From positions 10,243 through 74,242 of the forward strand of contig PFCD01000019.1 of NCBI GenBank assembly GCA_002778455.1: 64,000 nucleotides of DNA, given 5' to 3'. This document shows positions 6,889-53,728 of this stretch, in pieces (position 1 is the first letter of the stretch; every line of letters starts with the position of its first letter). The translations under genes were made by a program, and so were the position numbers. The stretch is from Candidatus Micrarchaeota archaeon CG10_big_fil_rev_8_21_14_0_10_45_29 (GTDB lineage: Archaea; Micrarchaeota; Micrarchaeia; Anstonellales; Anstonellaceae). Under the pieces are notes generated by a model, which worked only from the letters and a program-made list of their open reading frames with translations, did no database searches and was not told the origin of the DNA.

Positions 6889-7263
6889 TTAATGCCTCTT
6901 TGTTTTTATGATTTTCACTTTTGAGGGGGTAAGCAATATCTTGTCCTCGTCAATTCGCGCTATGTCCCCGTTTATTTTGTGCATGTGCGTCTTTATGTTA
7001 TCTACAACCATTTTCAGCTTCGCCGTGTTTTTCTTCATGCCAGACACGTTGAGAAGCACAAGGTTTTTTGCCTTAAGCTCGTCAAGCACCACTGTGACGT
7101 CGCTCTCTGAATGAAGCGATATCGGCTTTACATAAAAGTCCGCCGCTTCATGAAGCACGTCAACGCTGTCCATCTCCACAGAGTCGATTACCTCGTCTAT
7201 GTTGTCCACTTCCTCGCTCTGGGTTATCCCCAAAGATTTTGAGACACTGTCAAAAAAGCCCAT
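6889..7263 (-). CDS. sepF: Cell division protein SepF (archaeal)
   Basis: C-terminal domain VKPISLHSESDVTVVLDELKAKNLVLLNVSGM...INGDIARIDEDKILLTPSKV matches the SepF/DUF552 pattern. A GAGGTGGA Shine-Dalgarno motif precedes ATG 7263; the track start at 7272 is GTG. Confidence 0.7.
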   Translation of the reverse strand: MGFFDSVSKSLGITQSEEVDNIDEVIDSVEMDSVDVLHEAADFYVKPISLHSESDVTVVLDELKAKNLVLLNVSGMKKNTAKLKMVVDNIKTHMHKINGDIARIDEDKILLTPSKVKIIKTKRH

Positions 7264-7394
7264 CCAATCCACCTCATAGCTTTCGCGCTATAGATGTTAA
7301 ACTATGTATAGGATTATTAATAAGCATTCTCCTTTTTGCGCATATGTGTGGTTGCAAGTAAAAAAATAAGAAAAAATAAGGGTTTTGAAGCATT

Positions 7395-8690
7395 ATGCAA
7401 AAGCTTTTTCAAATCCAGCATGCCAAATTAGAAAATATGACTACATTTGAGGACATACTCTCCGCGCCTAGCGTTTTTGAGAACAGGAATGTGCTCTCTC
7501 CCCACTTTGTGCCAAAAGAACTCCCATTTAGGGATAATGAGATAAAGCGGGTGATGGTTGCTGTGGCGCCGGCGCTGGCGGGGGAGAGGCCCAGAAACCT
7601 TTTTATTTACGGAAAAACCGGCACAGGAAAAACATGCACAGTGCGCAGGGTGATGAAAGAGTTTGAAGAGCAGAAAACAAGCGCGCAAAATGTTTACATA
7701 AATTGCAGAATGTACAATTCGCGCTATAGGGTGGTGCAGAGAATAGCCAAGCAGTTTATTCCCGAGCTTGACAAGTCCGGGTTCGGGCTTTCGCATTTTT
7801 ATGAAAAGCTTATAGAATACATAAAAACAGGGGAGCAGAGGAGGCTTCTTATCATAATGGATGAGGTGGATATGGTAAAGGATTTGGATGAGCTTATTTA
7901 CACCATAACCCGCATGAATGACGAGCTTGATGTCGGCTCTATTTCCATAATAGGAATAACAAATCGGCTTAATTTCAAAGATGTGCTGGACCCGCGAAGC
8001 AAATCCTCCCTTTGCGAGACAGAGATGGTTTTTACCCCGTATACCCCTACGCAATTGCGCGCAATTTTAGAGCAGAGGGGAAAAGAAGGGTTTAAGGAAG
8101 GGGCTGTGCACGAATCTGCGGTGAATTTGGCGGCGGCAATTGCTGCCCAGGAAACGGGGGATGCGCGCTATGCGCTCAAGCTTTTGCTAAAGGCAGGTGA
8201 ATTTGCGGATGAGAGAAAAATTTCAATGGTAACAGATAAGGAAGTGGAGGAGGCAAGAAGAAACGTTGATATTGATTTGGCAACAGAGACTATTGCCACT
8301 TTGCCTGCGCACCAGCAGCTTGTGCTTCTCTCTGTTTGCAGCCTTTCATTAAAAGGGGCAAGCTATGCAAAGCTTGGAAATTCGGATGCAGAGAGAAACC
8401 TTATGTCAGGGGAAGTGTATGAGGAGTATTCAAAAATGTGCAGAAAATACAAAAAACCAAAGCGCTCCGCGCGCTGGTATAGGGAATACCTCAATGACTT
8501 GGAAATGCTTGGGCTTATTACAACCATAGAATCAGGAAGGGGAATGCGGGGGCACACCCGCCTCATAAAGCCGGGCTATGATGCTGAGCAGATGAGAAAA
8601 ATAATTATGGAGCAGTCATTTGCAAAAGACGTGCAGTTTGCCTCGCCAAAGCAGAGCACCCTCTCGCTTGATGGTGAGGAGGGGCAATAG
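7395..8690 (+). CDS. cdc6: Orc1/Cdc6 replication initiator (copy 1)
   Basis: Walker A (IYGKTGTGKT), Walker B (LLIIMDEVD) and a C-terminal winged-helix region (YLNDLEMLGLITT). Confidence 0.9.
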   Translation: MQKLFQIQHAKLENMTTFEDILSAPSVFENRNVLSPHFVPKELPFRDNEIKRVMVAVAPALAGERPRNLFIYGKTGTGKTCTVRRVMKEFEEQKTSAQNVYINCRMYNSRYRVVQRIAKQFIPELDKSGFGLSHFYEKLIEYIKTGEQRRLLIIMDEVDMVKDLDELIYTITRMNDELDVGSISIIGITNRLNFKDVLDPRSKSSLCETEMVFTPYTPTQLRAILEQRGKEGFKEGAVHESAVNLAAAIAAQETGDARYALKLLLKAGEFADERKISMVTDKEVEEARRNVDIDLATETIATLPAHQQLVLLSVCSLSLKGASYAKLGNSDAERNLMSGEVYEEYSKMCRKYKKPKRSARWYREYLNDLEMLGLITTIESGRGMRGHTRLIKPGYDAEQMRKIIMEQSFAKDVQFASPKQSTLSLDGEEGQ

Positions 8691-8753: not shown

Positions 8754-9308
8754 ATGAAAAAAGAAATTTCAAGGCTTTTGTTTGAGGCAGGGCTTCTAAA
8801 GACAGTAAGGAGAAGCGGATGGGATATTGCAAGGGCTCCGCGCGAGAGCGTTGCAGAGCATGTGTATCGCACCTGCATAGTGGGGATGGTGCTTGCAAAA
8901 ATGGCAAAATTAAATGAAAAGGAAGAGCTTCTTTTGCTAAAAGCATGTGCATTGCATGATTTGCATGAGGCAAGGGTTGGGGATTTGCATAAATTGGCGC
9001 AAAAATACGTGAAAGTAAATTCAAAAGAGGTGGAAGAGAGTATGCTTGAGGGCGCGGGTGAGCCGATAAAGAAGAGCTTTGAGGGGGCGCTATATGGCTT
9101 GCCGCAAAAAATAAAAAATTATTTAGAGGATGCTGATAAAATAGAGTGCGCAATTACTGCAAAAGAGTATGTTGATTTGGGATATCGCACAAATACATGG
9201 ATTGAGAATGTGAAAAAAAGAGTTAAAACAAAAGAGGGAAAAGAGCTTCTTGTAAATATTTTGAAATTTGATTCGCAGTCTCTCTTGTATGATATACGAA
9301 AAAAATAG
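8754..9308 (+). CDS. HD-domain phosphohydrolase (YfbR-like 5'-nucleotidase family)
   Basis: RSGW...ESVAEHVYRT...ALHDLHEARVGD carries the H...HD...D metal-binding pattern. The track start at 8694 is TTG; the first ATG is at 8754. Confidence 0.75.
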   Translation: MKKEISRLLFEAGLLKTVRRSGWDIARAPRESVAEHVYRTCIVGMVLAKMAKLNEKEELLLLKACALHDLHEARVGDLHKLAQKYVKVNSKEVEESMLEGAGEPIKKSFEGALYGLPQKIKNYLEDADKIECAITAKEYVDLGYRTNTWIENVKKRVKTKEGKELLVNILKFDSQSLLYDIRKK

Positions 9309-9354
9309 GAAAACATTGTATAAAAATAGAAAAATATAAAAAATAAAAAAGAAG

Positions 9355-9648
9355 TTACATCTTGTCCATTATCTCAAGCGCCTTTTTCACAGACATCCCC
9401 TCACGGATGCCCATCTCCTCTGCCCATGCCGTCATATCCCTTATTTTGGAGAGGTAAAGCTCATCAAATGATTTTACCCCTGGCACAAAGCCTGCGATAT
9501 CCCCAAGATGCTCGGCTGACTGCTTGTTCACATACGAGCAGGCGACATATCCCTTTTTTGCTTTTAGTATAAGCAACGGCATGTTGCCAAGCTCGAAGGA
9601 AAGGCCCTTGTATTCCCTTCCGTCAAAAATAATGCTCTGCTCCGACAA
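9355..9648 (-). CDS. DUF1805/YunC-like small protein
   Basis: Size and pattern (LLILKAKKGYVACSYVN...AEHLGDIA) match the DUF1805 family. The TTG start is supported by a GGGGGTGAT Shine-Dalgarno motif 4 nt upstream. Confidence 0.6.
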   Translation of the reverse strand: MSEQSIIFDGREYKGLSFELGNMPLLILKAKKGYVACSYVNKQSAEHLGDIAGFVPGVKSFDELYLSKIRDMTAWAEEMGIREGMSVKKALEIMDKM

Positions 9649-9717
9649 CAGATCACCCCCAACTGATCGGAAAAATTGCAGCCCGCATCATTTTTTGGCT
9701 GCAAAAGCAAACACCAT

Positions 9718-10047
9718 CTAAAACCTCTCATCCCTCCCCCATCTTTGCTGCCCCCGGCCGGAACCGGCTTCTCTGTCTTGCTGGCCCCATCTGTCTTTTT
9801 GAGCCTGCCTTATAACCTGCCTTTTCTTTTTGTCAAAAAGGCGCCTGTGCTTGCCGCAGGAGATGCAAAAATGCTGCTCGCGCCTCAACGAGGTGCGGGT
9901 GTCATTTAGCTTCTCCTCTTCGGTGTCGCCTTTGAATTCTGTTGAATATGTTGTAAACGTGTCAAGCGAGAGCGCCTTGTCTCTTGGCACCCGCCTTCCG
10001 CACGAATCACAGGTTATAAGCTTGTCTCGCCCTCTGGGTTTTCCCAT
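9718..10047 (-). CDS. rps26e: Ribosomal protein eS26
   Basis: CDSCGRRVPRDKA and the distal C-x-x-C (FCISCGKH) match the eS26 zinc-ribbon pattern. An AAGGTGAA Shine-Dalgarno motif lies upstream. The C-terminal R/Q/G-rich tail is extra. Confidence 0.75.
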   Translation of the reverse strand: MGKPRGRDKLITCDSCGRRVPRDKALSLDTFTTYSTEFKGDTEEEKLNDTRTSLRREQHFCISCGKHRRLFDKKKRQVIRQAQKDRWGQQDREAGSGRGQQRWGRDERF

Positions 10048-10052
10048 TTAAT

Positions 10053-10244
10053 TCACCTTACCTTTATTGCATACATCCCCGCTGTCTTGAAGCCGAGTTT
10101 TTTTGCAATCTGCGACTTCTCAGGGTCAAGCACCAATGCAGAAGAGTTGAACCGCTCGCTAAAATCCGAATTCTTCCCGTCCGGGCATTGGGGGCAGACG
10201 CCGGCGCTCTCATAAATTCTGTGGCAGTTTTTGCAAACTTTCAT
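10053..10244 (-). CDS. spt4: Transcription elongation factor Spt4 (RpoE'')
   Basis: Zinc ribbon (C-x2-C...C-x2-C) and C-terminus LVLDPEKSQIAKKLG...GMYAIKV are typical of Spt4. It sits immediately downstream of rpo7. Confidence 0.85.
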   Translation of the reverse strand: MKVCKNCHRIYESAGVCPQCPDGKNSDFSERFNSSALVLDPEKSQIAKKLGFKTAGMYAIKVR

Positions 10245-10250
10245 AAAAAC

Positions 10251-10853
10251 CTACTCTTTTTCCTCTTTTTTCTCCTTCTTCTCTTTCTTTGCCTCTTTTG
10301 CTGCCGGAGGCGCCTTCTCAGCCTTTGCAATCCATTCCTCTTTTCCAAGCCCCAAAGGCCTCATGCTAAGCCCTATTTTTGTGTCTGCCAAAGTGGGCTT
10401 TAAAGAGACGGTTGTTATTTTTGCAAAAACCGTTTCCCCCTTTTTTAGGGATTTTTTGCTCTCTTTCCCCACAAAAGATGCTGTCTTTTTATTGTAATTT
10501 AGAAAATCATTTGTTATTTGCGAGAGGTGAATAAGCCCCTCCACAGGGCCGATGCCTACAAATGCCCCAAAGTCCACAATTTCCGATACTGCCGCCTCTA
10601 CTACTTCGTTTATTTGCGGCTTGTATGCAAGTACGTCGAATTTAACATCATAATATGCCGCGCCGTCCGCCGGGATTACCATGCCGTCCCCCTGCGGCTC
10701 AACATTCCATACAGAGAGCACTATTCCGGCAACCTTGTCTATGCGCCTCTCATATTTTTCACGCAATATTTGCGTCAAGCCTGTCTTTAATTCCATCGAA
10801 AAGCTTTGCGCCGGCAGGCGCACGCGGTCATTGATTGTGATAATATTGTACAT
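10251..10853 (-). CDS. rpoE: DNA-directed RNA polymerase subunit Rpo7 (E')
   Basis: The N-terminal Rpo7 fold pattern and S1 domain (VVEAAVSEIVDFGAFVGIGPVEGLIHLSQI) are present. A K/E-rich C-terminal tail (AKEAKKEKKEKKEEKE) is appended. Confidence 0.85.
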   Translation of the reverse strand: MYNIITINDRVRLPAQSFSMELKTGLTQILREKYERRIDKVAGIVLSVWNVEPQGDGMVIPADGAAYYDVKFDVLAYKPQINEVVEAAVSEIVDFGAFVGIGPVEGLIHLSQITNDFLNYNKKTASFVGKESKKSLKKGETVFAKITTVSLKPTLADTKIGLSMRPLGLGKEEWIAKAEKAPPAAKEAKKEKKEKKEEKE

Positions 10854-13533: not shown

Positions 13534-14625
13534 ATGGCAAACATATTCCGCCAAATGGAGGGGCAGGAGAGCATATTTAAGGACGAGAAATTCCTTCGCC
13601 CAGACTATTTGCCGGATGAGATGCCCGGGCGTGAGGCGCAACTCAAAGAGATTGCCTCTTATTTGCAGGGGGCGGCGAAAGGAAAGGTGCCTCCCTCTAT
13701 TTTGCTTGTGGGAAAGCCGGGCACAGGCAAAACAAGCATGGCAAAGCTTTTGCTAAAGCAATTGGCAGAAGTTTCCTCAAAGCCAAAGCCGATTTATATA
13801 AATTGCTGGGAAAACACCTCGCGCTTTGGAATATTGAGCCGCCTTATCACCGAATTGGGAGACATGATGCCAAGGAGAGGAATTGCGTCTGATGAGGTGG
13901 TGGAGCGCTTGGCAGAAATTGGAAGGCGGGGACAGGTTATGCCGATAATAATTTTGGATGAAGTTGACAGGCTTTTGGCACAGGGCTCGCGCGAGGATGA
14001 AATTTTGTATGACTTGTCGCGCGCGCAGGAGGCGCTGGGCTTGCGCGCAAGCGTAATAGCGATTACAAATGATGAGGAATTGCCTGTGAAATTGGATGCG
14101 CGGGTGCGCTCCTCCCTTACAAACCATACGGTGCATTTTGCACAATATTCCCCCTCCCAGCTCAAAAGCATATTAAAAGAGAGGGTAAAGCATGCATTTT
14201 GGGCGGATGCGGTTGATGATGATGCGCTAGGGCTTTGCGCCGCAGTTGGCGCAAAGGCGGGGGGAGATGCGCGCCTCACTATTCATTTGCTTTGGGCCGC
14301 GGCAAAAAGGGCAGAAGTTGAGGGAAAGAAAAAGCTTTGCGTAGAGCATGTGCAGGCGGTAAAAGAGCGCTCTTTGATGCACGCGAAAACGCCTCTTGAG
14401 AGAAAGGAGGGGGCTTTGGATGAGCTTGAGAAAAAAATAATTGATGCGATAAAAGAGGTTGGACAAGGGGTTAGCACAGAGAAAATTTATGAAAAATTAA
14501 ATGTTGATTCAAATTCGCAAAGAAATATCCGCCACCGCCTCTCAAAGCTTGAAAAAGCAGGGCTTATTGAGATGGTTGAAGCAGAGGGAAAAAACAAGGT
14601 GTTTAAGGTAAGCGTGAAAAAATAG
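13534..14625 (+). CDS. cdc6: Orc1/Cdc6 replication initiator (copy 2)
   Basis: Walker A (LVGKPGTGKTS), Walker B (IIILDEVD) and a C-terminal winged helix (RLSKLEKAGLIEMV). Confidence 0.9.
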   Translation: MANIFRQMEGQESIFKDEKFLRPDYLPDEMPGREAQLKEIASYLQGAAKGKVPPSILLVGKPGTGKTSMAKLLLKQLAEVSSKPKPIYINCWENTSRFGILSRLITELGDMMPRRGIASDEVVERLAEIGRRGQVMPIIILDEVDRLLAQGSREDEILYDLSRAQEALGLRASVIAITNDEELPVKLDARVRSSLTNHTVHFAQYSPSQLKSILKERVKHAFWADAVDDDALGLCAAVGAKAGGDARLTIHLLWAAAKRAEVEGKKKLCVEHVQAVKERSLMHAKTPLERKEGALDELEKKIIDAIKEVGQGVSTEKIYEKLNVDSNSQRNIRHRLSKLEKAGLIEMVEAEGKNKVFKVSVKK

Positions 14626-37334: not shown

Positions 37335-37474
37335 CGCCTCTCCTCCGCATCGCGCGCATCCCTTGCCTCTTTGCTTATCTCATGCCAGGAGGATTTGCTT
37401 CCCTCCTTATACATAAGCCACACAAGGGCGCACAAAAAGGCGATTGAGCCTCCCAGAATAAGCAAATTTTCCAT
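37331..37474 (-). CDS. Possible 47-aa single-TM mini-protein
   Basis: MENLLILGGSIAFLCALVWLMYKEG... The stop overlaps the start of the 315-aa gene (ATGA). The longer 90-aa track ORF would run into the mvk start region. Confidence 0.3.
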   Translation of the reverse strand: MENLLILGGSIAFLCALVWLMYKEGSKSSWHEISKEARDARDAEERR

Positions 37475-37526
37475 GCTAAAATATGCAGTGGTGAGGTTTA
37501 AAAGATTGCAAATGTGTGAGCATAAT

Positions 37527-45273: not shown

Positions 45274-48200
45274 TTACATTCCCTCTGCGGCTGCTTTTTG
45301 CACCTTTTGCTCGTCGCTAAGATGCAGCAGCGGGCCCCAGAGCGGAGTCCCTACGCCTGGATTGATTATTTCATAATGCACACCTGTTGCAGACAGATTA
45401 TAATAAATTAACGGAACCTCACCTTCCCCCGCGGGCGCGCCGTCCTGCGCGCTTAGCTTTGAGAGGTCAAGAGACAAAATGAATTTTCCAGCCGCCTCGT
45501 CATATTTTGAGCCCATCTTCGGCATGTCTGGAGAGATTATCCCACCGGGCGCAAAATAAAACTGTGATGAAGCATCCTCTATAAGTGAGAGAAACTGTTG
45601 GTACGGGCAATCAGCATCATAAATGCTTATTCTTTGCATAAGGTCGCTGCCGCTGTAAAATTCTTCTGTGCGCAGGCGGAATCGGGTGCCGTCTTTGTCT
45701 TGTATTATCCTGTCTATCCCCCCGCCCTCGTCTGCCTCAAAAGAGCCGGCAGGAAAACTCTGCTCAAAATCATCACCATAAAGCTTTGAGAAAACATTTT
45801 TCAAATCATCGGAGTTTTTTGCCGATTTTATCCTCCCGGCATCAAGAATTGCGGCGGGGGTGGGCTCTGCCATTCCTGCCTGATTGTAAGTTATTGTCTC
45901 GTATTTTGGAGTGCCGTCTTTGTTTGTGCCGTTTCTGAAAATTGCGCCATACTCGTCTGTTTGGGTCCAGAGAACATAAGGGGCGAGGCGATGCTCCCAC
46001 ACATCACTTCCCTGTGCGCTTAATATGTCAAGCTTTCTTTTTGAGATGTTTAATGAGAGCTCAAAAGTATAACCCCCGTCCCTTGCCCCGGTTGCTGTGC
46101 CTACCCACATTTTCTCTTTCCCGTCATTGAATGAGGCATAAAGCTGGATTCTTCCTTCCCCGTCTTCTTTGGCTGTTAAAGCAAGCAAATCGGTGCCCAC
46201 CCTCTCCCCTTTCTTTGCGCATGGAAGAAGGTAGAAATTTCTTTTTCCTCCCGCGCCCTCATCATAGCCGAATACGCAAAATGAGACTGCGGTGTTTTGA
46301 ATCGGCGTCTGCTTTGTTATTTGGGTTTGGCTCTCGTTTACAAACGGTGAATTTGGAAAGTCGGTGTTGTGGGACGTGAGATGAAACATAAAGTCGCCGG
46401 GCGCCTGCCCGTATGGCACAACTATTTTTTTGCCAAGCCACTGCTTCGGGCCCGGAGTTACTTCCCCGAATGCGGACAAGCTTGAAGCCCTTGGAGGCTT
46501 TGAAACCCAGCCGCCCGGCTCAAATTTATCCTCTGGAGGCACTTTTACGACCGCGAATTTTCTGTCCATCACATAAGGCACATCTATTTTTGCAAACGGC
46601 TCGCTCCCAACCATAGTGGATGCATACTTATGCATGAAAAGCCCGCCGCTCCCCGTAACGCCCAGCGAGAGCGCCGGGTTATCCGGGTCTGTTTGCCCCA
46701 TTTTTGCGCCCAAATAATATGTTGCCTTCGAACCGTTTTGGTAAGAGAAGGTTGCCACTTCCCCGTCCGCGCCTACCGGGTCGCTCTCGGTCTGCACTAA
46801 AGAGTGGGAAATTGAAGTGTTGAGGGTGGTTGGCTCAAAAAATTCCTCAAGCCCCTCCGGGCGCTCGGGTGCTGGGAAAGAGAATTTTCCTTTTGCCCCC
46901 TTTAGGCGCTCGTATCCTGCAAGTGCGACTCCCTGCTGATTGTAGAGGGCCGCTATGTAGGAGAATGATTCGTCCTTTAGCGTGACATCCGAATCGTGCC
47001 CGAAAGTTATTTTGAATCCTTCCTCATAGCTCTTATCCGCGGTTATTGTGGGAGTAATGTGGCTTATTCCGGTGTAAGTGAGCTCCAAAGTTTTCGGGTT
47101 TGGGGGAATTTCCTCTGTTTGCAAATTTTTGCCAAGATTCATCAATTCCACAAGGTTGTATGAATTTGTGTGAATTTGCAAGCCCCTCTGCTGTGAGAGG
47201 AAGGGGACAAGGGGGTGGGATGAATTCTCATTCCTGCTATCCCCTGTGCCGGTTTTTCTATCAACTATGAATTTGTTGAAGTTTTCCTCTGCGCTCTCAT
47301 CCTTGAGGTAAAAGTATGGCACATATCCGGCATCAAGCGCTTCTTTTTCGCTTGAAAATTCTCCTTTATTGTCAAAGTCAATTGAGCCGTCCGGCATTTG
47401 CAAATAATAAGAAACAGAAACTATTGCATCCCCTTCAATAATATTGCCTTTTGTATCTGTTGATAAAAGCTTCTGCCCGCCAAAAGAGGCGGAAAGAGAG
47501 CTTTGGGAAATTTTGTTTGCAGGGTCGCGAAGCCAGAGGATTAAATCGTTGATAGATACCATGTTCTGGTCGCTTAGCGCCTCCTCCCCTGGCATTAAAT
47601 TATAAATTACCCTTGTGTTTGCTTTTGAAGTTAATTTCCCGTTTTCAATAAAGGGCTTCAGCGATGATGGAACAACTACATTTTGCCCGGACATTGCATC
47701 AGTTGTTACTTCCCAGCCGTCGGGCACAAAAAATCCGTTTGCGTCATATTGCCCCGGAGTATCTACAGTGTAAACAAGCTTTAGCATATCGTGCTTGAGG
47801 CAAAAAGCGTCAATTATCCTTGCCGCCTGCTCATATTCTTTTTCATATCCTGGAATTGCAAGAAACTCGTGCGATGCTTTTCCCACAGGAAAAGAGAATG
47901 GTGAGAGGGGGTTTGTTGCCTTGTCAAGCAAATCTTTCATTACTTTTTGCCCGTTTGCATTATCCCATTGCACATCAGTTGAATTTCCCTGCGCCGATAG
48001 GATAAGGGAGGAGTAATACCTGAAAGAGACATCGCGCAAAGAGTTTGAGAGCATCTGGTTGAGCGCAAAATTTAGGATATTGTTTTTGTTTGGGTCTGAA
48101 TTTGGAATTTTTGTGTCCTCACTTTCCCCAAATAAGGAGAATAGTTGGGAGAGGGTTCCGTCTGCCTCCATTTCTTTGATAATTCCCCTTACCTGCCAGT

Positions 48201-49122
48201 CAGGGCTTCTCTGGGTTGCCGCCGCGTCTCCCGCGGTAATTTGCGCGTCTGTGAAAGGGGAATTTGCAAAATCAAAGCTTGAGGCGTCTTTTACGTCTTT
48301 TTTGCTTGCTTCTGATTTTTCGCAAAATTCATGCACTGCCATGTGCAAAAGCCCGCCTTTTCCCGCGCCCGCATTATACATAAGCAGCTCATCAAGGTAT
48401 CCCAGGCCCGTTATCCATAGGCGCGCATACGGGCGCGATGCCTTTGATGCCGAGCCGGCAAGAAAGTATGCGGAAATTGCCCTATCCACAAATTCATAAT
48501 CAGCCATGTTTATTTCATGCCCTTCCTGCACGCTTGCGGGAATGTTTGCGTTCTCTATTTGCTCCACTCCCGCCTTAAGGATTGAGATTGCATCCTGCAA
48601 ATTTTTCACGTCTGTGATGGATTCGCATGAGAAGGCGGCGGATGATTTTAAATTTGGGTTAAGGCGGGAGGCGATAAGCAAAATATTTGCGATAGGGCCC
48701 GCAACATCGGATTCTGTTATGGTTCCTGACTTTACTTTTTGCGCAAGAATATCATATGCGTTTGCAAGGTTGTGCAATGTTGCATCCTTTTCATAATATT
48801 TGTTGTATCTCAAATCAGATGCAAGCAAAAGGTATCCGGCGTAATAGATATTTATTTTTCCCGCAACATTGTTGAGCGGGCTCCAAAGTTCCGCAAATGT
48901 GTATTTTGAGCCGGATGCTAGCAGATAATCGCTGAATTGGTTCTGAATTGAGTTTTGGGCATTCCTTACCCGCACATATATCGGAAGCGCCTGCGCCTGG
49001 GGGTTGTTGCATTTGTTTTCCAGAAAACCGAGGTAAAGCCGCTGGGAGCGCTCAAGCTCTGCGCCGACATGCGACCCGCCGCCCTCTTTTTGCGAACGAT
49101 AAACATTAAGCTGGAAAAGCAT
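45274..49122 (-). CDS. Orphan giant protein (1282 aa from ATG 49122) with conserved N-terminal MLFQLNVYRSQKEGGGS peptide
   Basis: Uninterrupted ORF. The track start at 49143 is TTG; the first ATG at 49122 aligns with the start of the paralogous motif in the upstream gene. No signal peptide, TM helix or recognisable domain. Confidence 0.6.
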   Translation of the reverse strand: MLFQLNVYRSQKEGGGSHVGAELERSQRLYLGFLENKCNNPQAQALPIYVRVRNAQNSIQNQFSDYLLASGSKYTFAELWSPLNNVAGKINIYYAGYLLLASDLRYNKYYEKDATLHNLANAYDILAQKVKSGTITESDVAGPIANILLIASRLNPNLKSSAAFSCESITDVKNLQDAISILKAGVEQIENANIPASVQEGHEINMADYEFVDRAISAYFLAGSASKASRPYARLWITGLGYLDELLMYNAGAGKGGLLHMAVHEFCEKSEASKKDVKDASSFDFANSPFTDAQITAGDAAATQRSPDWQVRGIIKEMEADGTLSQLFSLFGESEDTKIPNSDPNKNNILNFALNQMLSNSLRDVSFRYYSSLILSAQGNSTDVQWDNANGQKVMKDLLDKATNPLSPFSFPVGKASHEFLAIPGYEKEYEQAARIIDAFCLKHDMLKLVYTVDTPGQYDANGFFVPDGWEVTTDAMSGQNVVVPSSLKPFIENGKLTSKANTRVIYNLMPGEEALSDQNMVSINDLILWLRDPANKISQSSLSASFGGQKLLSTDTKGNIIEGDAIVSVSYYLQMPDGSIDFDNKGEFSSEKEALDAGYVPYFYLKDESAEENFNKFIVDRKTGTGDSRNENSSHPLVPFLSQQRGLQIHTNSYNLVELMNLGKNLQTEEIPPNPKTLELTYTGISHITPTITADKSYEEGFKITFGHDSDVTLKDESFSYIAALYNQQGVALAGYERLKGAKGKFSFPAPERPEGLEEFFEPTTLNTSISHSLVQTESDPVGADGEVATFSYQNGSKATYYLGAKMGQTDPDNPALSLGVTGSGGLFMHKYASTMVGSEPFAKIDVPYVMDRKFAVVKVPPEDKFEPGGWVSKPPRASSLSAFGEVTPGPKQWLGKKIVVPYGQAPGDFMFHLTSHNTDFPNSPFVNESQTQITKQTPIQNTAVSFCVFGYDEGAGGKRNFYLLPCAKKGERVGTDLLALTAKEDGEGRIQLYASFNDGKEKMWVGTATGARDGGYTFELSLNISKRKLDILSAQGSDVWEHRLAPYVLWTQTDEYGAIFRNGTNKDGTPKYETITYNQAGMAEPTPAAILDAGRIKSAKNSDDLKNVFSKLYGDDFEQSFPAGSFEADEGGGIDRIIQDKDGTRFRLRTEEFYSGSDLMQRISIYDADCPYQQFLSLIEDASSQFYFAPGGIISPDMPKMGSKYDEAAGKFILSLDLSKLSAQDGAPAGEGEVPLIYYNLSATGVHYEIINPGVGTPLWGPLLHLSDEQKVQKAAAEGM

Positions 49123-49201
49123 GAACCGGCACCGATAGCTCAACCCAGAGATTGTTTTTAAGCATTACTGAAAATTACGAGAGAGCCCCTCTTTAAAAAA
49201 A

Positions 49202-52200
49202 TTATTTGGGAGGGGTGCGCCTGCGCCTCCTTCGGGCATTTTGAGGCGGCTCTTTCTCCTTTGCTTCTTTCTCTTCTTGCGGCGGTTTTTCAGGAATTTC
49301 TTCTTGCGCAGGTGGCTCATTTTGCATTGGTTTTTCTTCAGGGGTTCTTTCTTCCGGCTTAATAGTTTCCTGCGGCAATTCTTCTTTCTCTTTTGGCTGC
49401 GCGGGAATTTCCTTTATTTCTGCCTTTTTAGTTTCAGGCAAAACTTCTTCTTGTTTGGGGGGAATTCTTCTCCTTCTTCTGCCTGTTTTCCTCTCAGGGG
49501 TTTCTTCCTGCACAGGGGTTTGGGTTTTGCTTTCCTTTCCGGGGAATGCTTGCGCAGGCGTGCTTTCCTCTTCTGCGGGAATAGTTTGTGTTTGGGCTGG
49601 GGCGCCTGTGCTCTCCATAAGTGTTTTTCTCTCCTGCGGCTCTTCCTCTTTCCAGTAGCCGATTGTTGAGCGGCGCAAATAAGGGTTAAGGCGCGGGTCG
49701 GTTGAATAATCATTAAATGCTGCGGGTGAGGGAGGAAGCTTCTCTGTGCTTCCTGAAATGTCAAAGTTTAGCGCGGCAGTTATTTTGTAATATGATGTGG
49801 AAGCGCCGAAATTTCGTTTTACTTCCCCGGTGTTTATATCAACATATCCCACCGGCTGCGCCTGGTTTGCGTATGATGCGCTCACAACAAGCCCGTTTAG
49901 CACGTTTGGAAGCGCTTGTGTTATATTTATTTCATATCCGCGGGCGGAGGAAAATATTCCGTACTTCCAATCCGACCCGCCGTCAATTGGCTTGCTAAAG
50001 CCGTATTTTAAGGAAATTGTTGTGGGTGAATATGAGCCGAATAAATTTTCTGTTGGCACCCATTGCAATGTGCCGCTGATGCCTGTTGTTACAAGGTGGT
50101 TTGCATTAAACGCCCACTCAATCGCGCCCATAAGGCGGGTGTTAAACCAGGGCTCGCGAAGCTCTTTGCTCAGGCGCAGGTTCAAATCAAGCGTGGGGGT
50201 GCTTGTGTTAAGCATTGGCAGCCCCTCTTTGAGCCCTTTTACATAATCACTTGTTTTCATCTCATCATCAGGGCGGGTCATGCCTATTACGCTGAAGAAT
50301 AGGGATGGTGGGGGGCGGGCGGTGAGCAAATAATCCGCGCTGATTCCTTTGTATACAGGAATATGCCCGAACACTTCCACTGCCATGGTGCCAAGGGGCA
50401 TCCAGCTGCTCATTTCCTGCTCCCCTTTTTGCTGTATCCAGCTTATGTTTCCCCCCGGAATAAGCTCATCATGCGTGCCTTCCCTCTCCCCTGTGGGGTG
50501 GTTGTAGCCGAATACATCCAAATAAGCGTCGCTTCTTTTTGCAAGCGAATATTCTTTTCCTATATGGGAGGAAAGGGCATCATACGCGCTCTTTAGCTGC
50601 AAAAGCGAATGCGTGGTGCTCCATGTTTTGCCTTTCATATCCTGAGCCCAGAAAATCAAATCCTCGCAAAGCTTCTGCCCTTCCTTATCATCTGCAAGGG
50701 CGCGGGAGAAAATATCTGCTTGCGCTATGAGCGCGTCGCACAAGTCAATTCTCTGCTCGGCGGTTATCGGGGTTCCGGTGCTTTGCGAATTTTGAAATGC
50801 ATCCCAGAGGGCATTCCATGCGGCGCTTACTGGCAGAAGGGCGGAATTTATTTGCGGGTTTTCCTTTTGCAGGCGCGAGCCGGCCATATAAGTTGCCCCG
50901 TAATTTGCGCGTATCCTAAAATTAACCTCATCCGCCCAGTGAATTGAATATATGAATGAGCCTAGCATTGCAAAAGAATTTATTGAGCCTGCAAGCCCCA
51001 TTCCCTCAAGCTCGAAATTGGGATGGTAGCTAAATGTTGCGCCAAGCTCCACCCTGTTTTCTGCGCCAAGCCAGTTGAATAAATACCCCACTTTCCCGCT
51101 TACGCCGTTTTTTTGCAAGGATTCAGTGAGCGAGTCCAATGTATTCCAGAAAAATGAATTCCAGAGATGGCAGTTGTATGCAGAGAGCCCGGCGAATTTT
51201 GCCCCGCTTATGAGCATGTTCATTTCCGCCTCTTTCCATTTTCTCCCGTAGCTTTCCCTGTCAATATCCACCAGGCTTGCGCTTGAGTAAACGCGCCTCC
51301 AATAGGCGCACTCAAAATAATTCAGCAAAACGTTTTTGAAATTCCCGTCTCCCGTAACTTCGACTACCGCGTCCGGGCTCATTTTCATGAATTTGCCGTT
51401 TTGCTCGTATGAGAGAAATTTTGAGAACATTCCGGAAACATTATTTTTGAAAAGAGCTTCAAGCAATTGCACATTCATTCCCTGCGCGCCCCCTGCCCCT
51501 TCAAGCAGAAGGTCTATATCAGAATAAATTGATTCAAATTCCGGCAAATTTTCCATTATGCTAAGGTAGGGAAGCGGATTGCCTGCTATGAGGGGGTTTG
51601 CGAATTTTTCCCCCATAAAGTTTGCAAAAAAGGGCGCGGACTTGTCTTTTCGGGTGCCCTGCTCGCCTATTTCATCCTTGTTTGGGGCAAAGTCCCCGAA
51701 TCCGCGGTTTTGGGGGGAGTCGCCCATAAAATTCATGCCCATATTTCCCCCCGCATAAAAGCCGGACGGCAATGGGCGCTCTATTATTGTGCTGCTTGTG
51801 GAAGAGGTTGCGTTTATTGAGAGAATTGGAATCGGCGTTGCGTTCTCATTTAATGTGCTTGGAACAAAAAGCAATAATTTTTCCATATCTTCTCCTGCAA
51901 AATAAAGAGGGGTGTTGTATGTGGATGAGGTGGTGGTGAGGGTGAATTCGCCTTTTTTATCCTCTCCTTTTTCCTCATTTTTATTTTCCCCGGTTTTTTC
52001 CCCTGCGCTTTGCATTGAGTATTGCTCGCTTATTTTAACCGCAAAATGGTTGTTCCCCAAGTGTGTTGCGCTTATTTGCACATCATTGGAATTGACCGCC
52101 TTTACCATATCCTCTAAATTTTTTGCATAAAGGGCGGGGTTTATCGGCGCAAGAGAAGCGCCCCTCTCAAGCTGGACATGCAAAGTTGCGCTTGCCGCCC

Positions 52201-53695
52201 CCTCTTCCCCCTGCCAGTTGGCGGATGATTCTTTTGCATCTACCCAGAATTTTTGCGATGTTTTGTATTCTTTTGAAGTGATTACGGCAAAGCCGCGCCC
52301 TTTTCTGTCAAGTGATTTTTGAAAAATTAAATTTGCAACAAAGTCGGAATTATCCGCATAATTGAATTTGCTTGAAATTTGGTATGAGTTGCGCTTTGAT
52401 TTTCCTTCGGGGTTGATGTAACCTTTTGCGCGACCTTCTTTCACGGTGCTCCACCGGTCATTGGAAATAAGGTTCATGAAATACATAAGCTCGCGCCTTG
52501 CATCATCAAGCTCCGCGTCTGAGAGGTTTGGCTTGAGAAACATGTCGCGAATCGCTAAGAGGCGCGAATTTACAGTTTCGATTGAATTTTGTATATACTC
52601 CTGCTCATTTGGCGGGTTTTGAAGCATTTGCAAACCTTTTCCGGCTTCCTCAACTAATTCTGCGCCGAATTTATCCCTCTCCCATTCCTGCACCCCCAAA
52701 TAAGCATACGCGTCATCAAGGGCTTTGCCGCTCTGCCCGGTGTAAAGTGAGGAAATTATTGTGGAGGCGGCCTTTTGCGCCTTTATCATTACCTCAAGCT
52801 GGGCGGCTAATTCTGCAGGCTCTAAAGTGGGGTCAAGAAATACCAATGGAGAGAGATTTTTCTCGTCTATCCCAGTTATTTTTGAGGCGACGCGCCCGAC
52901 AGATGCTTTATTTTTTGGCCCGTCAACCCCTGCAAAAAGATAGTTGTTTGTAATTGAGATGGGGTTGCCGCGCGCGTCGGCTATTGTGTAATAAGAAACA
53001 TCTGCAACGGTTACAAGGCGGGAGCTTAGTATTCTTCCCGAATAATTTTTTATTATCTCATCTTTTTGCGCCTGCGAGAGAGAGGCGGTTTGCAAAAATT
53101 GCTCTAATACATTTATTGAATTTGGGAGTATTTTCCATTGCTTTGGCTGGTTGAATTTTTCAAGAAGCATTTGCCCGAAATCCTCCGAGAGCCCTTCTGA
53201 GTCGGCTGATGCGCCGGCAGCATCAAAAAGAAATTGGCGAAATATTCCGACGCACATTTCTGTGAGGGGCGCGACCGCGTTTTTTCGCATCTCCTCCTGC
53301 GTCTTCTCATCAAGGGAGAGGTTTCCCCAGCTTCTTGGCACCCAGAAATTGTTAAGGCGGGCAGAGGATTCATCAAAGCCGGCGCCTGAGAGCTTTTTGC
53401 CGTGCAAATCCGTAATATAGCTGTCTGTTGGGTTTGAGAGCAAAAGCTCTCCGCAGGATTCGCTTATAAGAGATGCCGAAGAGATTGCAAATGAGCCGGA
53501 GGCGCCTCCCTCCTGCTCCTCAAAGATGCTTCTTCCTAATGTGATTGCATCCATAAAGCCGGAATTGTTTATTGTTTTCTGCTCTGGAGTTGGGCCTTTT
53601 GCCTTGTTAAAATTTATTTTTGGCTCGGCTGCGCTTGTTGAGCCGCCCGCCTCTTTTTGGGAACGATATACCCGCAGCTGAAATAAGAATGCCAT
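49202..53695 (-). CDS. Orphan giant protein (1497 aa from ATG 53695) with conserved N-terminal MAFLFQLRVYRSQKEAGGS peptide, beta-strand-rich module and E/P/K-rich tail
   Basis: Uninterrupted ORF. The track start at 53704 is TTG and the first ATG is at 53695. The C-terminal third has long runs of amphipathic strands (e.g. VELGATFSYHPNFELEG, NFRIRANYGATYMAGSR, STSYYKITAALNFDISG). The terminal ~150 aa are low complexity. Confidence 0.6.
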   Translation of the reverse strand: MAFLFQLRVYRSQKEAGGSTSAAEPKINFNKAKGPTPEQKTINNSGFMDAITLGRSIFEEQEGGASGSFAISSASLISESCGELLLSNPTDSYITDLHGKKLSGAGFDESSARLNNFWVPRSWGNLSLDEKTQEEMRKNAVAPLTEMCVGIFRQFLFDAAGASADSEGLSEDFGQMLLEKFNQPKQWKILPNSINVLEQFLQTASLSQAQKDEIIKNYSGRILSSRLVTVADVSYYTIADARGNPISITNNYLFAGVDGPKNKASVGRVASKITGIDEKNLSPLVFLDPTLEPAELAAQLEVMIKAQKAASTIISSLYTGQSGKALDDAYAYLGVQEWERDKFGAELVEEAGKGLQMLQNPPNEQEYIQNSIETVNSRLLAIRDMFLKPNLSDAELDDARRELMYFMNLISNDRWSTVKEGRAKGYINPEGKSKRNSYQISSKFNYADNSDFVANLIFQKSLDRKGRGFAVITSKEYKTSQKFWVDAKESSANWQGEEGAASATLHVQLERGASLAPINPALYAKNLEDMVKAVNSNDVQISATHLGNNHFAVKISEQYSMQSAGEKTGENKNEEKGEDKKGEFTLTTTSSTYNTPLYFAGEDMEKLLLFVPSTLNENATPIPILSINATSSTSSTIIERPLPSGFYAGGNMGMNFMGDSPQNRGFGDFAPNKDEIGEQGTRKDKSAPFFANFMGEKFANPLIAGNPLPYLSIMENLPEFESIYSDIDLLLEGAGGAQGMNVQLLEALFKNNVSGMFSKFLSYEQNGKFMKMSPDAVVEVTGDGNFKNVLLNYFECAYWRRVYSSASLVDIDRESYGRKWKEAEMNMLISGAKFAGLSAYNCHLWNSFFWNTLDSLTESLQKNGVSGKVGYLFNWLGAENRVELGATFSYHPNFELEGMGLAGSINSFAMLGSFIYSIHWADEVNFRIRANYGATYMAGSRLQKENPQINSALLPVSAAWNALWDAFQNSQSTGTPITAEQRIDLCDALIAQADIFSRALADDKEGQKLCEDLIFWAQDMKGKTWSTTHSLLQLKSAYDALSSHIGKEYSLAKRSDAYLDVFGYNHPTGEREGTHDELIPGGNISWIQQKGEQEMSSWMPLGTMAVEVFGHIPVYKGISADYLLTARPPPSLFFSVIGMTRPDDEMKTSDYVKGLKEGLPMLNTSTPTLDLNLRLSKELREPWFNTRLMGAIEWAFNANHLVTTGISGTLQWVPTENLFGSYSPTTISLKYGFSKPIDGGSDWKYGIFSSARGYEINITQALPNVLNGLVVSASYANQAQPVGYVDINTGEVKRNFGASTSYYKITAALNFDISGSTEKLPPSPAAFNDYSTDPRLNPYLRRSTIGYWKEEEPQERKTLMESTGAPAQTQTIPAEEESTPAQAFPGKESKTQTPVQEETPERKTGRRRRRIPPKQEEVLPETKKAEIKEIPAQPKEKEELPQETIKPEERTPEEKPMQNEPPAQEEIPEKPPQEEKEAKEKEPPQNARRRRRRTPPK

Positions 53696-53718: not shown

Positions 53719-53728
53719 ATTAAAAAAG
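53719..53728 (-). promoter_or_regulatory. Candidate TATA-like element upstream of the giant-gene block
   Basis: The minus strand reads TTTTTTAATC about 25-33 nt upstream of ATG 53695, with no Shine-Dalgarno motif between them (leaderless-type arrangement). A second A/T box (AAATTTTAAGG) lies about 50 nt upstream. Confidence 0.25.

Follow-up and report, generated by a model that had tools for sequence, protein, structure and literature searches.

How do two giant neighbouring proteins with no other resemblance come to begin with nearly the same peptide, and what might the peptide do for them? The question is raised by a 64-kb stretch of DNA (hereafter the window, meaning the whole stretch analysed) from a groundwater metagenome-assembled genome of Candidatus Micrarchaeota (DPANN), CG10_big_fil_rev_8_21_14_0_10, in which two genes, here called A and B, lie on the same strand with 79 bp between them. 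The DPANN archaea encode many giant orphan proteins without recognisable signal peptides, and a selected 16-residue peptide carried by two giants provides a concrete handle on the localisation and assembly of such proteins. A starts with M-LFQLNVYRSQKEGGGS and B with MAF-LFQLRVYRSQKEAGGS; this common 16-residue peptide is referred to below as the tag. The features concerned are the following.

45274..49122, minus strand: gene A, 1282 amino acids (NCBI PIT84077.1), an orphan without signal peptide, transmembrane segment or match in Pfam, NCBIfam, PHROG or PDB.
49202..53695, minus strand: gene B, 1497 amino acids (NCBI PIT84078.1), an orphan without signal peptide or family match.
49072..49122, minus strand: tag of A, MLFQLNVYRSQKEGGGS, found in the 79% identical ortholog A79 as MLFQLNIYRSQKDGGGS.
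53639..53695, minus strand: tag of B, MAFLFQLRVYRSQKEAGGS, of which the 38% identical ortholog P0001 keeps just R-V-x-x-S-x-K-x-A-x-G-S.
49057..49071, minus strand: linker behind the tag of A, HVGAE; variable, being ISTS with an indel in the 79% ortholog.
53624..53638, minus strand: linker behind the tag of B, TSAAE; variable, and behind it B and the 38% ortholog differ by an indel of 6 residues.

The tag consists of distinct parts, running from a beta-prone aromatic and hydrophobic stretch (LFQLxVY) through a charged, polar segment (RSQKE) to a glycine hinge (xGGS), behind which come the variable linker and then the conserved body of the protein. The N-terminal similarity of A and B is non-random and is held at the protein level. 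When full-length A was compared with B by BLASTP, the N-terminal segment was the only one recovered (16 of 22 residues identical, 35 bits, E=5e-5 in a search space of 1282 x 1497), all remaining segments having E>0.3, and the observed score of the N-terminal 24-mers was never reached by shuffled sequences (p<=0.0003), so the match is not one expected by chance. Among 133 N-termini of open reading frames (ORFs) from the window and related loci, A was matched best by its 79% ortholog (score 87) and by B (75), no background score exceeding 27. Similarly, a position-specific scoring matrix of the tag, applied to all six frames of the window, about 20 kb of flanking sequence from the same genome and the related loci, gave scores of 71.7-76.7 for the three tag-bearing proteins (A, B and A79) and none above 29.3 for anything else. 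The coordinates and sequences of both tags in a preliminary description of this DNA proved exact, as did its statement that the two proteins become unrelated beyond GGS.

That description had attributed the likeness to selection on the peptide, not to a recent duplication of DNA, and the codons bear this out. Every codon difference on which it relied is present (CTT/TTA, TTC/TTT, CTT/CTG, GTT/GTA, TCG/TCC, GGG/GGC and TCG/TCA). Across the 16 common codons, the Nei-Gojobori method counts 8.7 synonymous differences at 11.8 sites (pS 0.73, saturated) and 4.3 non-synonymous differences at 36.2 sites (pN 0.12; Fisher p=7e-5). Since the synonymous sites are saturated and pN is low, the peptide is under selection and does not stem from recent copying of DNA. 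The corresponding dN/dS for the tag is about 0.05-0.16, with dS saturated and the proteins themselves non-homologous.

The close ortholog A79 (P0014 / L007:2338), which lies on a different contig of the same ENA sample, adds a third copy. It keeps 14 of the 16 tag residues, the only changes (V to I and E to D) being conservative, alongside seven synonymous differences. By a codon-table count over the 48 nucleotides of the tag, A and A79 differ at 9, A and B at 13, and A79 and B at 14. Because A is closer to A79 than either is to B, the tags have not been homogenised recently, and the differences among the three copies imply that the tag was already shared before the two A lineages, now separated by a gene-wide dS of about 1.0, diverged. 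Past GGS, the linker change and its indel intervene before conservation between A and A79 resumes.

Independent gene calls by ENA, JGI and NCBI place identical ATG starts on both genes, giving 1282 and 1497 amino acids. The region conserved with distant orthologs begins at about residue 26 in A (30% ortholog) and at residue 8 in B (38% ortholog), and no in-frame ATG, GTG or TTG lies between the tag and this conserved region in either gene; a translation start downstream of the tag, which the preliminary description had named as a possible refutation, is therefore excluded. The DNA upstream of the two start codons shows no similarity between A and B, and it contains the following elements.

53720..53727, minus strand: TATA-box-like TTTTTTAA, a putative promoter element 25-32 nt upstream of the B ATG.
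49123..49201, minus strand: B-A intergenic region, 79 bp.
49155-49162, minus strand: TATA-like CTTAAAAA upstream of the A ATG, a putative promoter element.
49130-49133, minus strand: GGTG, a putative Shine-Dalgarno-like element upstream of the A ATG.

Given the spacing of the TATA-like box from the B ATG, the B transcript would have little or no leader. Between the window and the 79% relative (L007), the B-A intergenic region has about 90% identity, whereas 56% of the gene's synonymous sites differ; the region is thus better conserved than those sites and is probably under constraint as a promoter or 5' untranslated region.

The breadth of the tag was assessed by several searches. The back-translated pattern FQLxVYRSQKE gave no matches in a collection of one genome per GTDB species, and a single match in the JGI/ENA metagenome collection, a chance one lying antisense to an ORF of 823 amino acids that looks helicase-like by eye; this strict pattern would miss the A79 variant with its V to I and E to D changes. 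A looser tag pattern had no matches in IMG/VR. A profile of the first 30 residues, searched against 1.84 billion representative proteins, returned A and two irrelevant eukaryote-like repeat proteins, which align with post-tag columns only. The same search did not return B, a known positive, and proteins with tag-less cluster representatives would be missed by it; the representative of B at 90% identity is a 96-residue C-terminal fragment, and the failure to recover B would follow if its cluster in the 50% library, too, were represented by a sequence lacking the tag. A 40-residue concatenation of the two tags, submitted to an index of 5.8 billion proteins, produced one candidate and none that scored, the word index being unsuited to short queries. 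Both protein families are very rare. Among the 5.8 billion clusters, B has one relative (38%) and A has two (79% and 30%), and the B family has no relatives in the GTDB species genomes.

No third tagged protein was found in about 84 kb of this genome, the 1.84 billion representatives, the GTDB species genomes, the JGI metagenomes or IMG/VR, and the tag is confined to A, B and this lineage. In the 79% relative the tag was read for the A ortholog, not for B, as the L007 contig is cut. The recurrence in relatives, whose absence the preliminary description had named as a refutation, is seen in part: the tag is present in the 79% ortholog of A, but there is no third protein, and the orthologs of 30-38% identity have different N-termini, the tag having been lost or never present. 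With no third carrier and with tag-free distant orthologs, a widespread targeting signal is not supported, and two tagged proteins offer no breadth for a general 'address code'.

A and B belong to a gene cluster of the order B-A-C-D-E-bPH, on the minus strand and adjoining PGK, whose remaining members are listed here.

42504..45263, minus strand: gene C, 919 amino acids, an orphan in the operon of A and B; its N-terminus, MFKEEKQPKTFQYYKNE, is tag-free.
40388..42493, minus strand: gene D, 701 amino acids, with an N-terminal signal or transmembrane segment, 24 Cys and a C-terminal CARDB domain.
39668..40333, minus strand: gene E, 221 amino acids, with a coiled coil and a weak CEP76/transglutaminase-like core.
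38878..39495, minus strand: membrane protein with a bPH_2 (bacterial PH) domain, which closes the cluster ahead of rpoK and is syntenic.

The synteny of the cluster is kept in three lineages. The order A-C-D-E-bPH-rpoK is common to the window and L008, and PGK-B is common to the window and L004; L005 and L007 cover the B-A-C part only. Profile and sequence searches with A, B and C gave no match in Pfam, NCBIfam, PHROGs or PDB sequences, and no transmembrane segment or signal peptide was found in these three proteins, D being the sole clearly extracytoplasmic member of the cluster. The genes around the cluster are archaeal housekeeping genes, encoding PGK, GAPDH, PolB, Pus10, two Cdc6/Orc1 proteins, RpoE, RpoK, SepF and CTP synthase.

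Distant members of the cluster show what stands in the place of the tag elsewhere. The B ortholog B' (L004/L005) begins MTGPRVLLSPKGASGSSGEQ and has R-V-x-x-S-x-K-x-A-x-G-S in common with B (7 of 12 positions). The A orthologs A' (L005) and A'' (L008) begin MFARAAFSESEQGQGNNTRY and MARAAFAYSGQDYSSSS, both having M(F)ARAAF followed by differing S/G/Q-rich linkers and the conserved body; in an alignment of A, A79 and A'', from which A' was left out, M1, Y8, Q11 and S17 are the only invariant tag residues. Every ortholog nevertheless begins with a short hydrophobic or aromatic stretch, which is followed by a G/S/Q-rich linker of variable length and then by the conserved body.

A possible second case of sharing appears in L005, the distant relative from Logan SRR28370466. 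The C ortholog C' has the N-terminus MAFRAAYEQEDNNTRQT, and A' and C' are reciprocal best partners among the 133 N-termini (MFARAAFSESEQ..NNTR vs MAFRAAYEQEDNNTR; N-termini at L005:6501-6560 in A' and L005:10737-10790 in C'). Their score of 35 compares with 34 for the true ortholog A'' and at most 26 for the background, and the shuffle p value is 0.002. A' and C' may accordingly share a tag of their own, different from that of A and B, although the case is suggestive only, because 45 pairs were tested and full-length BLASTP is silent on it. If it were true, tag sharing within the operon would have arisen twice, with different sequences and in different pairs; tags would then evolve in concert within the operon, a pattern by which functionally associated proteins could usefully be recognised in genomes.

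When compared with known systems, the tag is of no known signal type. As the preliminary description had stated, it is neither a Sec, Tat or lipobox signal nor a class III pilin signal: A and B contain no hydrophobic stretch, their best 19-residue Kyte-Doolittle mean being 1.1-1.2, the tag has no RR and no Cys, and the residues beyond GGS are polar. It does not form an amphipathic helix, its helical hydrophobic moment at 100 degrees being low (0.22-0.38), and its Chou-Fasman propensity is 1.22-1.28 for beta structure vs 1.06 for helix. Donor strands, as in chaperone-usher pilins, archaeal threads and bundling pili, are likewise beta-prone N-terminal segments placed before a body. Unlike them, the proteins here have no Sec or class III signal and no detectable pilin-like fold, and donor-strand subunits are ten times smaller. 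The alternating hydrophobics that had suggested a donor strand dissolve on measurement, since the hydrophobic moment of the tag at 170 degrees is no better than that of shuffles (p 0.37-0.63).

A resemblance is also offered by the encapsulation peptides of bacterial microcompartments, the cargo-loading peptides of encapsulins and the capsid-targeting sequence of phage T4. In these systems, too, a short terminal tag is carried by unrelated proteins of one cluster, a poorly conserved flexible linker follows, and the sequence of the tag varies among lineages. They differ from the present case in that cargo tags are amphipathic helices, whereas A and B have no such helix in the tag, are giant and are encoded on a housekeeping chromosome, not by a virus; furthermore, Pfam and PHROGs revealed no families of shell, encapsulin or capsid proteins among the scanned ORFs. 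The S-layer was considered separately. The S-layer protein of Micrarchaeota carries PF05123 and a signal or transmembrane segment (10.1101/2021.04.28.441871); A and B were rejected as S-layer proteins because neither has PF05123 or such a segment.

The reading tentatively preferred for A and B is that a lineage-specific tag, together with its flexible linker, gives the two proteins a common docking or assembly handle, a real possibility although one rated somewhat below even odds. The tag would act as a recognition or docking peptide through which A and B bind one partner site, or each other, during the building or localisation of a large multi-protein assembly. It would have originated in an old exchange of 5' ends between neighbouring genes that preceded the divergence from the 79% relative, and would have been maintained by purifying selection ever since. 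Several points weigh against this proposal. The tag occurs on two proteins of one narrow lineage only, and distant orthologs function with quite different N-termini. The A'/C' likeness, in which BLASTP reports nothing at full length, is a suggestive parallel at most, and the strand-like periodicity at 170 degrees is not significant. An AlphaFold2 model of A (residues 1-1200, three sequences) reached a mean predicted local distance difference test (pLDDT) of 31 and does not inform the placement of the tag. The general importance of the tag is unproven, as it is known from two proteins of a narrow lineage and its function is inferred.

Among the other explanations, the most plausible holds that the tag is a relic of an old 5'-end gene conversion between neighbours, with no specific address function, whose conservation now serves only general needs, for example a stable N-terminus, efficient initiation or the co-translational folding of very long proteins. 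The limitation of the motif to two genes of one narrow lineage and the other N-termini of distant orthologs speak for a relic, and the 14 of 16 residues (88%) kept between A and A79 are not clearly above the gene-wide 79%; it is nonetheless somewhat unlikely, given the low A-B dN/dS at saturated dS in non-homologous proteins, the hypervariable linker directly behind a conserved tag, and the similar sharing that appears independently in A' and C'. A nucleic-acid element located in the first 50 nt of A and of B, whether an operator, a small-RNA target or an mRNA structure, would account for the 3' half of the tag sequence, GTNTATCGTTCNCAAAAAGAGG, in which A and B differ at only 2 of 22 nt. Such an element is very improbable, as the A-B differences are overwhelmingly synonymous, A79 changes 9 of the 48 nucleotides at the cost of two conservative replacements, and the 5' contexts differ, with a TATA-like box at -25..-32 in B and a longer leader with GGTG in A. 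Folding of the 5' RNAs is also not better than that of shuffled sequences (z +0.42, +0.32 and -0.64), and Rfam gave no match; the ideas of an RNA structure and of a DNA operator were rejected because changes are concentrated at synonymous positions and because of these folds. Homotypic pairing, in which the A and B segments bind through sequence-specific cross-beta contacts as a beta-zipper or amyloid-like structure, is quite unlikely, though it has its attractions: pairing of this kind needs identity, so that copies would stay alike while the sequence drifts between lineages, and tags within one genome do appear to change in concert. In the amyloid signalling motifs (fungal HET-s, PP and sigma; bacterial and archaeal BASS1-10), motifs of at least 15 residues likewise lie at the termini of neighbouring unrelated genes, being beta-prone and lineage-specific as well, and the tag has an aromatic and hydrophobic core set between charged 'gatekeepers' and a Gly hinge. 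In amyloid signalling pairs of the BASS or HET-s type, one copy is found at the N-terminus of a NOD-like receptor (NLR; NB-ARC or NACHT with TPR or WD) and the other at the C-terminus of a Bell- or HeLo-type effector (10.1101/2020.01.06.895854). By contrast, Pfam finds no NB-ARC/NACHT, Bell or HeLo domain in A, B or C, both copies of the tag are N-terminal, and its beta-prone core of about 9 residues falls short of amyloid motifs of 20-25 residues and has no G/N/Q-hydrophobic repeat.

The last alternative, a cleaved leader or export signal, would have a peptidase cut after Gly-Gly and deliver A and B to the surface by non-classical export. The preliminary description had likened the tag to double-glycine leaders cut by papain-like peptidases, such as those on substrates of peptidase-containing ATP-binding cassette transporters (PCATs), and the likeness is real in its N-terminal place, its length of 17-19 residues, where such leaders have 15-30 and end in GG, GA or GS, and its Gly-Gly followed by Ser: all three motif-bearing proteins end the segment in GGS, and the ends read KEAGG-S and KEGGG-S, with the junctions at residues 18-19 and 16-17. 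In addition, although A and B lack a Sec signal, their operon also encodes a membrane protein and a CARDB protein that is secreted, and the papain/transglutaminase-like gene E belongs to the conserved cluster. The resemblance stops there. PCAT leaders have conserved hydrophobic residues at -4 and -7 (and also at -12 and -15), the absence of which at -4 and -7 had been noted correctly, as B has E at -4 and S at -7, and A has K or E at -4 and R or S at -7; in B, only -12 and -15 are Leu. The first 40 residues of A, B and A79 matched no leader family in NCBIfam/TIGRFAM or Pfam at E<=10, and no C39 peptidase or ABC exporter was found by Pfam scans of selected ORFs of the 64-kb window or in the gene calls listed for the flanks of about 20 kb, about 84 kb in all. 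Known cargo of double-glycine leaders consists of small peptides, unlike proteins of 1300-1500 residues in an archaeal host. The leader explanation is rather doubtful, and the part of it that gave the cut to the papain-like neighbour is not supported.

Protein E, the product of what the preliminary description called a transglutaminase/papain-like gene, illustrates the difficulty. Its only Pfam match is to the CEP76 peptidase-like family and is sub-threshold (24 and 22.5 bits vs a threshold of 27.8). Cys148 and Asp183 are present, with Thr168 in place of the expected His, and the Thr is kept in the L008 ortholog. An AlphaFold2 model of E from a single sequence has a pLDDT of 49, and a Foldseek search of this poor model against the PDB gave nothing at E<0.4, several papain-like folds lying in the noise. 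E is the best-conserved protein of the cluster, with 60% identity where A has about 30%, and is probably a pseudo-enzyme or a binding module with an N-terminal coiled coil. The idea of a Gln/Lys cross-linking site at SQKE loses its basis here, since E has no Cys-His-Asp set and so is predicted not to be an active transglutaminase.

If the docking handle were extended to the whole clade, Micrarchaeota might possess lineage-specific N-terminal address tags, exchanged between neighbouring genes and then selected, that direct signal-less giants (A and B, and in another lineage A and C) into one assembly or non-classical export route; as a general claim this is doubtful, well on the unlikely side. 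Such an apparatus, in which the secreted D, the presumed pseudo-enzyme E and the bPH membrane protein would also take part, could perhaps serve the cell surface or contact with a host. Were it true, a new protein-targeting or assembly code would exist in DPANN archaea.

Several further features of the cluster proteins were observed. The C-terminal region of B, about 150 residues (49205-49663, minus strand), is a disordered tail rich in E, P, K and Q, with two RRRRR(R)-x-PPK motifs and the end ...RRRRRRTPPK; its 38% ortholog has the same type of tail, with four Arg-run/PP motifs. Such a tail suggests binding of nucleic acid or a polyanion. C ends in ...VITLGLDFKF-COOH (42507-42545, minus strand) and its ortholog in ...VRLGLNWKF-COOH (L008:10120-10159), which resembles the C-terminal beta-signal of bacterial outer-membrane proteins and is odd in an archaeon. 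A strand of similar look, ITAALNFDI, is the last ordered one in B, although hhalign finds no homology between B and C. In two distant lineages, a coiled-coil-like gene of 299-303 amino acids lies on the opposite strand between B and A (L005:5529-6428, minus; L008:2193-3104, minus); the window contains no homolog of this gene, B and A being direct neighbours there with the tag in common.

Outside the cluster, two Cdc6/Orc1 paralogs (7395-8690 and 13534-14625, both plus strand) stand 5 kb apart, and near them are Pfam matches to SepF (6889-7272) and Rpb7/RpoE domains (10251-10853). The gap 9308-10251, about 0.9 kb, is without a long ORF in the window scan, whereas the ENA contig calls three small genes there (63-109 amino acids), and a repeat scan of the region gave just short two-copy repeats. 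The region is possibly the neighbourhood of a replication origin. An F/L/C-rich ORF of 211 amino acids (37830-38465, minus strand), antisense within the GHMP-kinase gene (37371-38696, plus strand), is almost certainly spurious. Phage-type integrases are found just beyond both ends of the window (L009:18086-20723; L011:1-8285; ENA contig k141_670024). One flank also carries a Transglut_core protein, and the opposite flank a type III-like restriction-modification pair (N6_N4_Mtase with ResIII/RE_endonuc) and a third Cdc6-like ATPase; the integrase-bearing flanks are probably integrated elements on either side of the housekeeping block.

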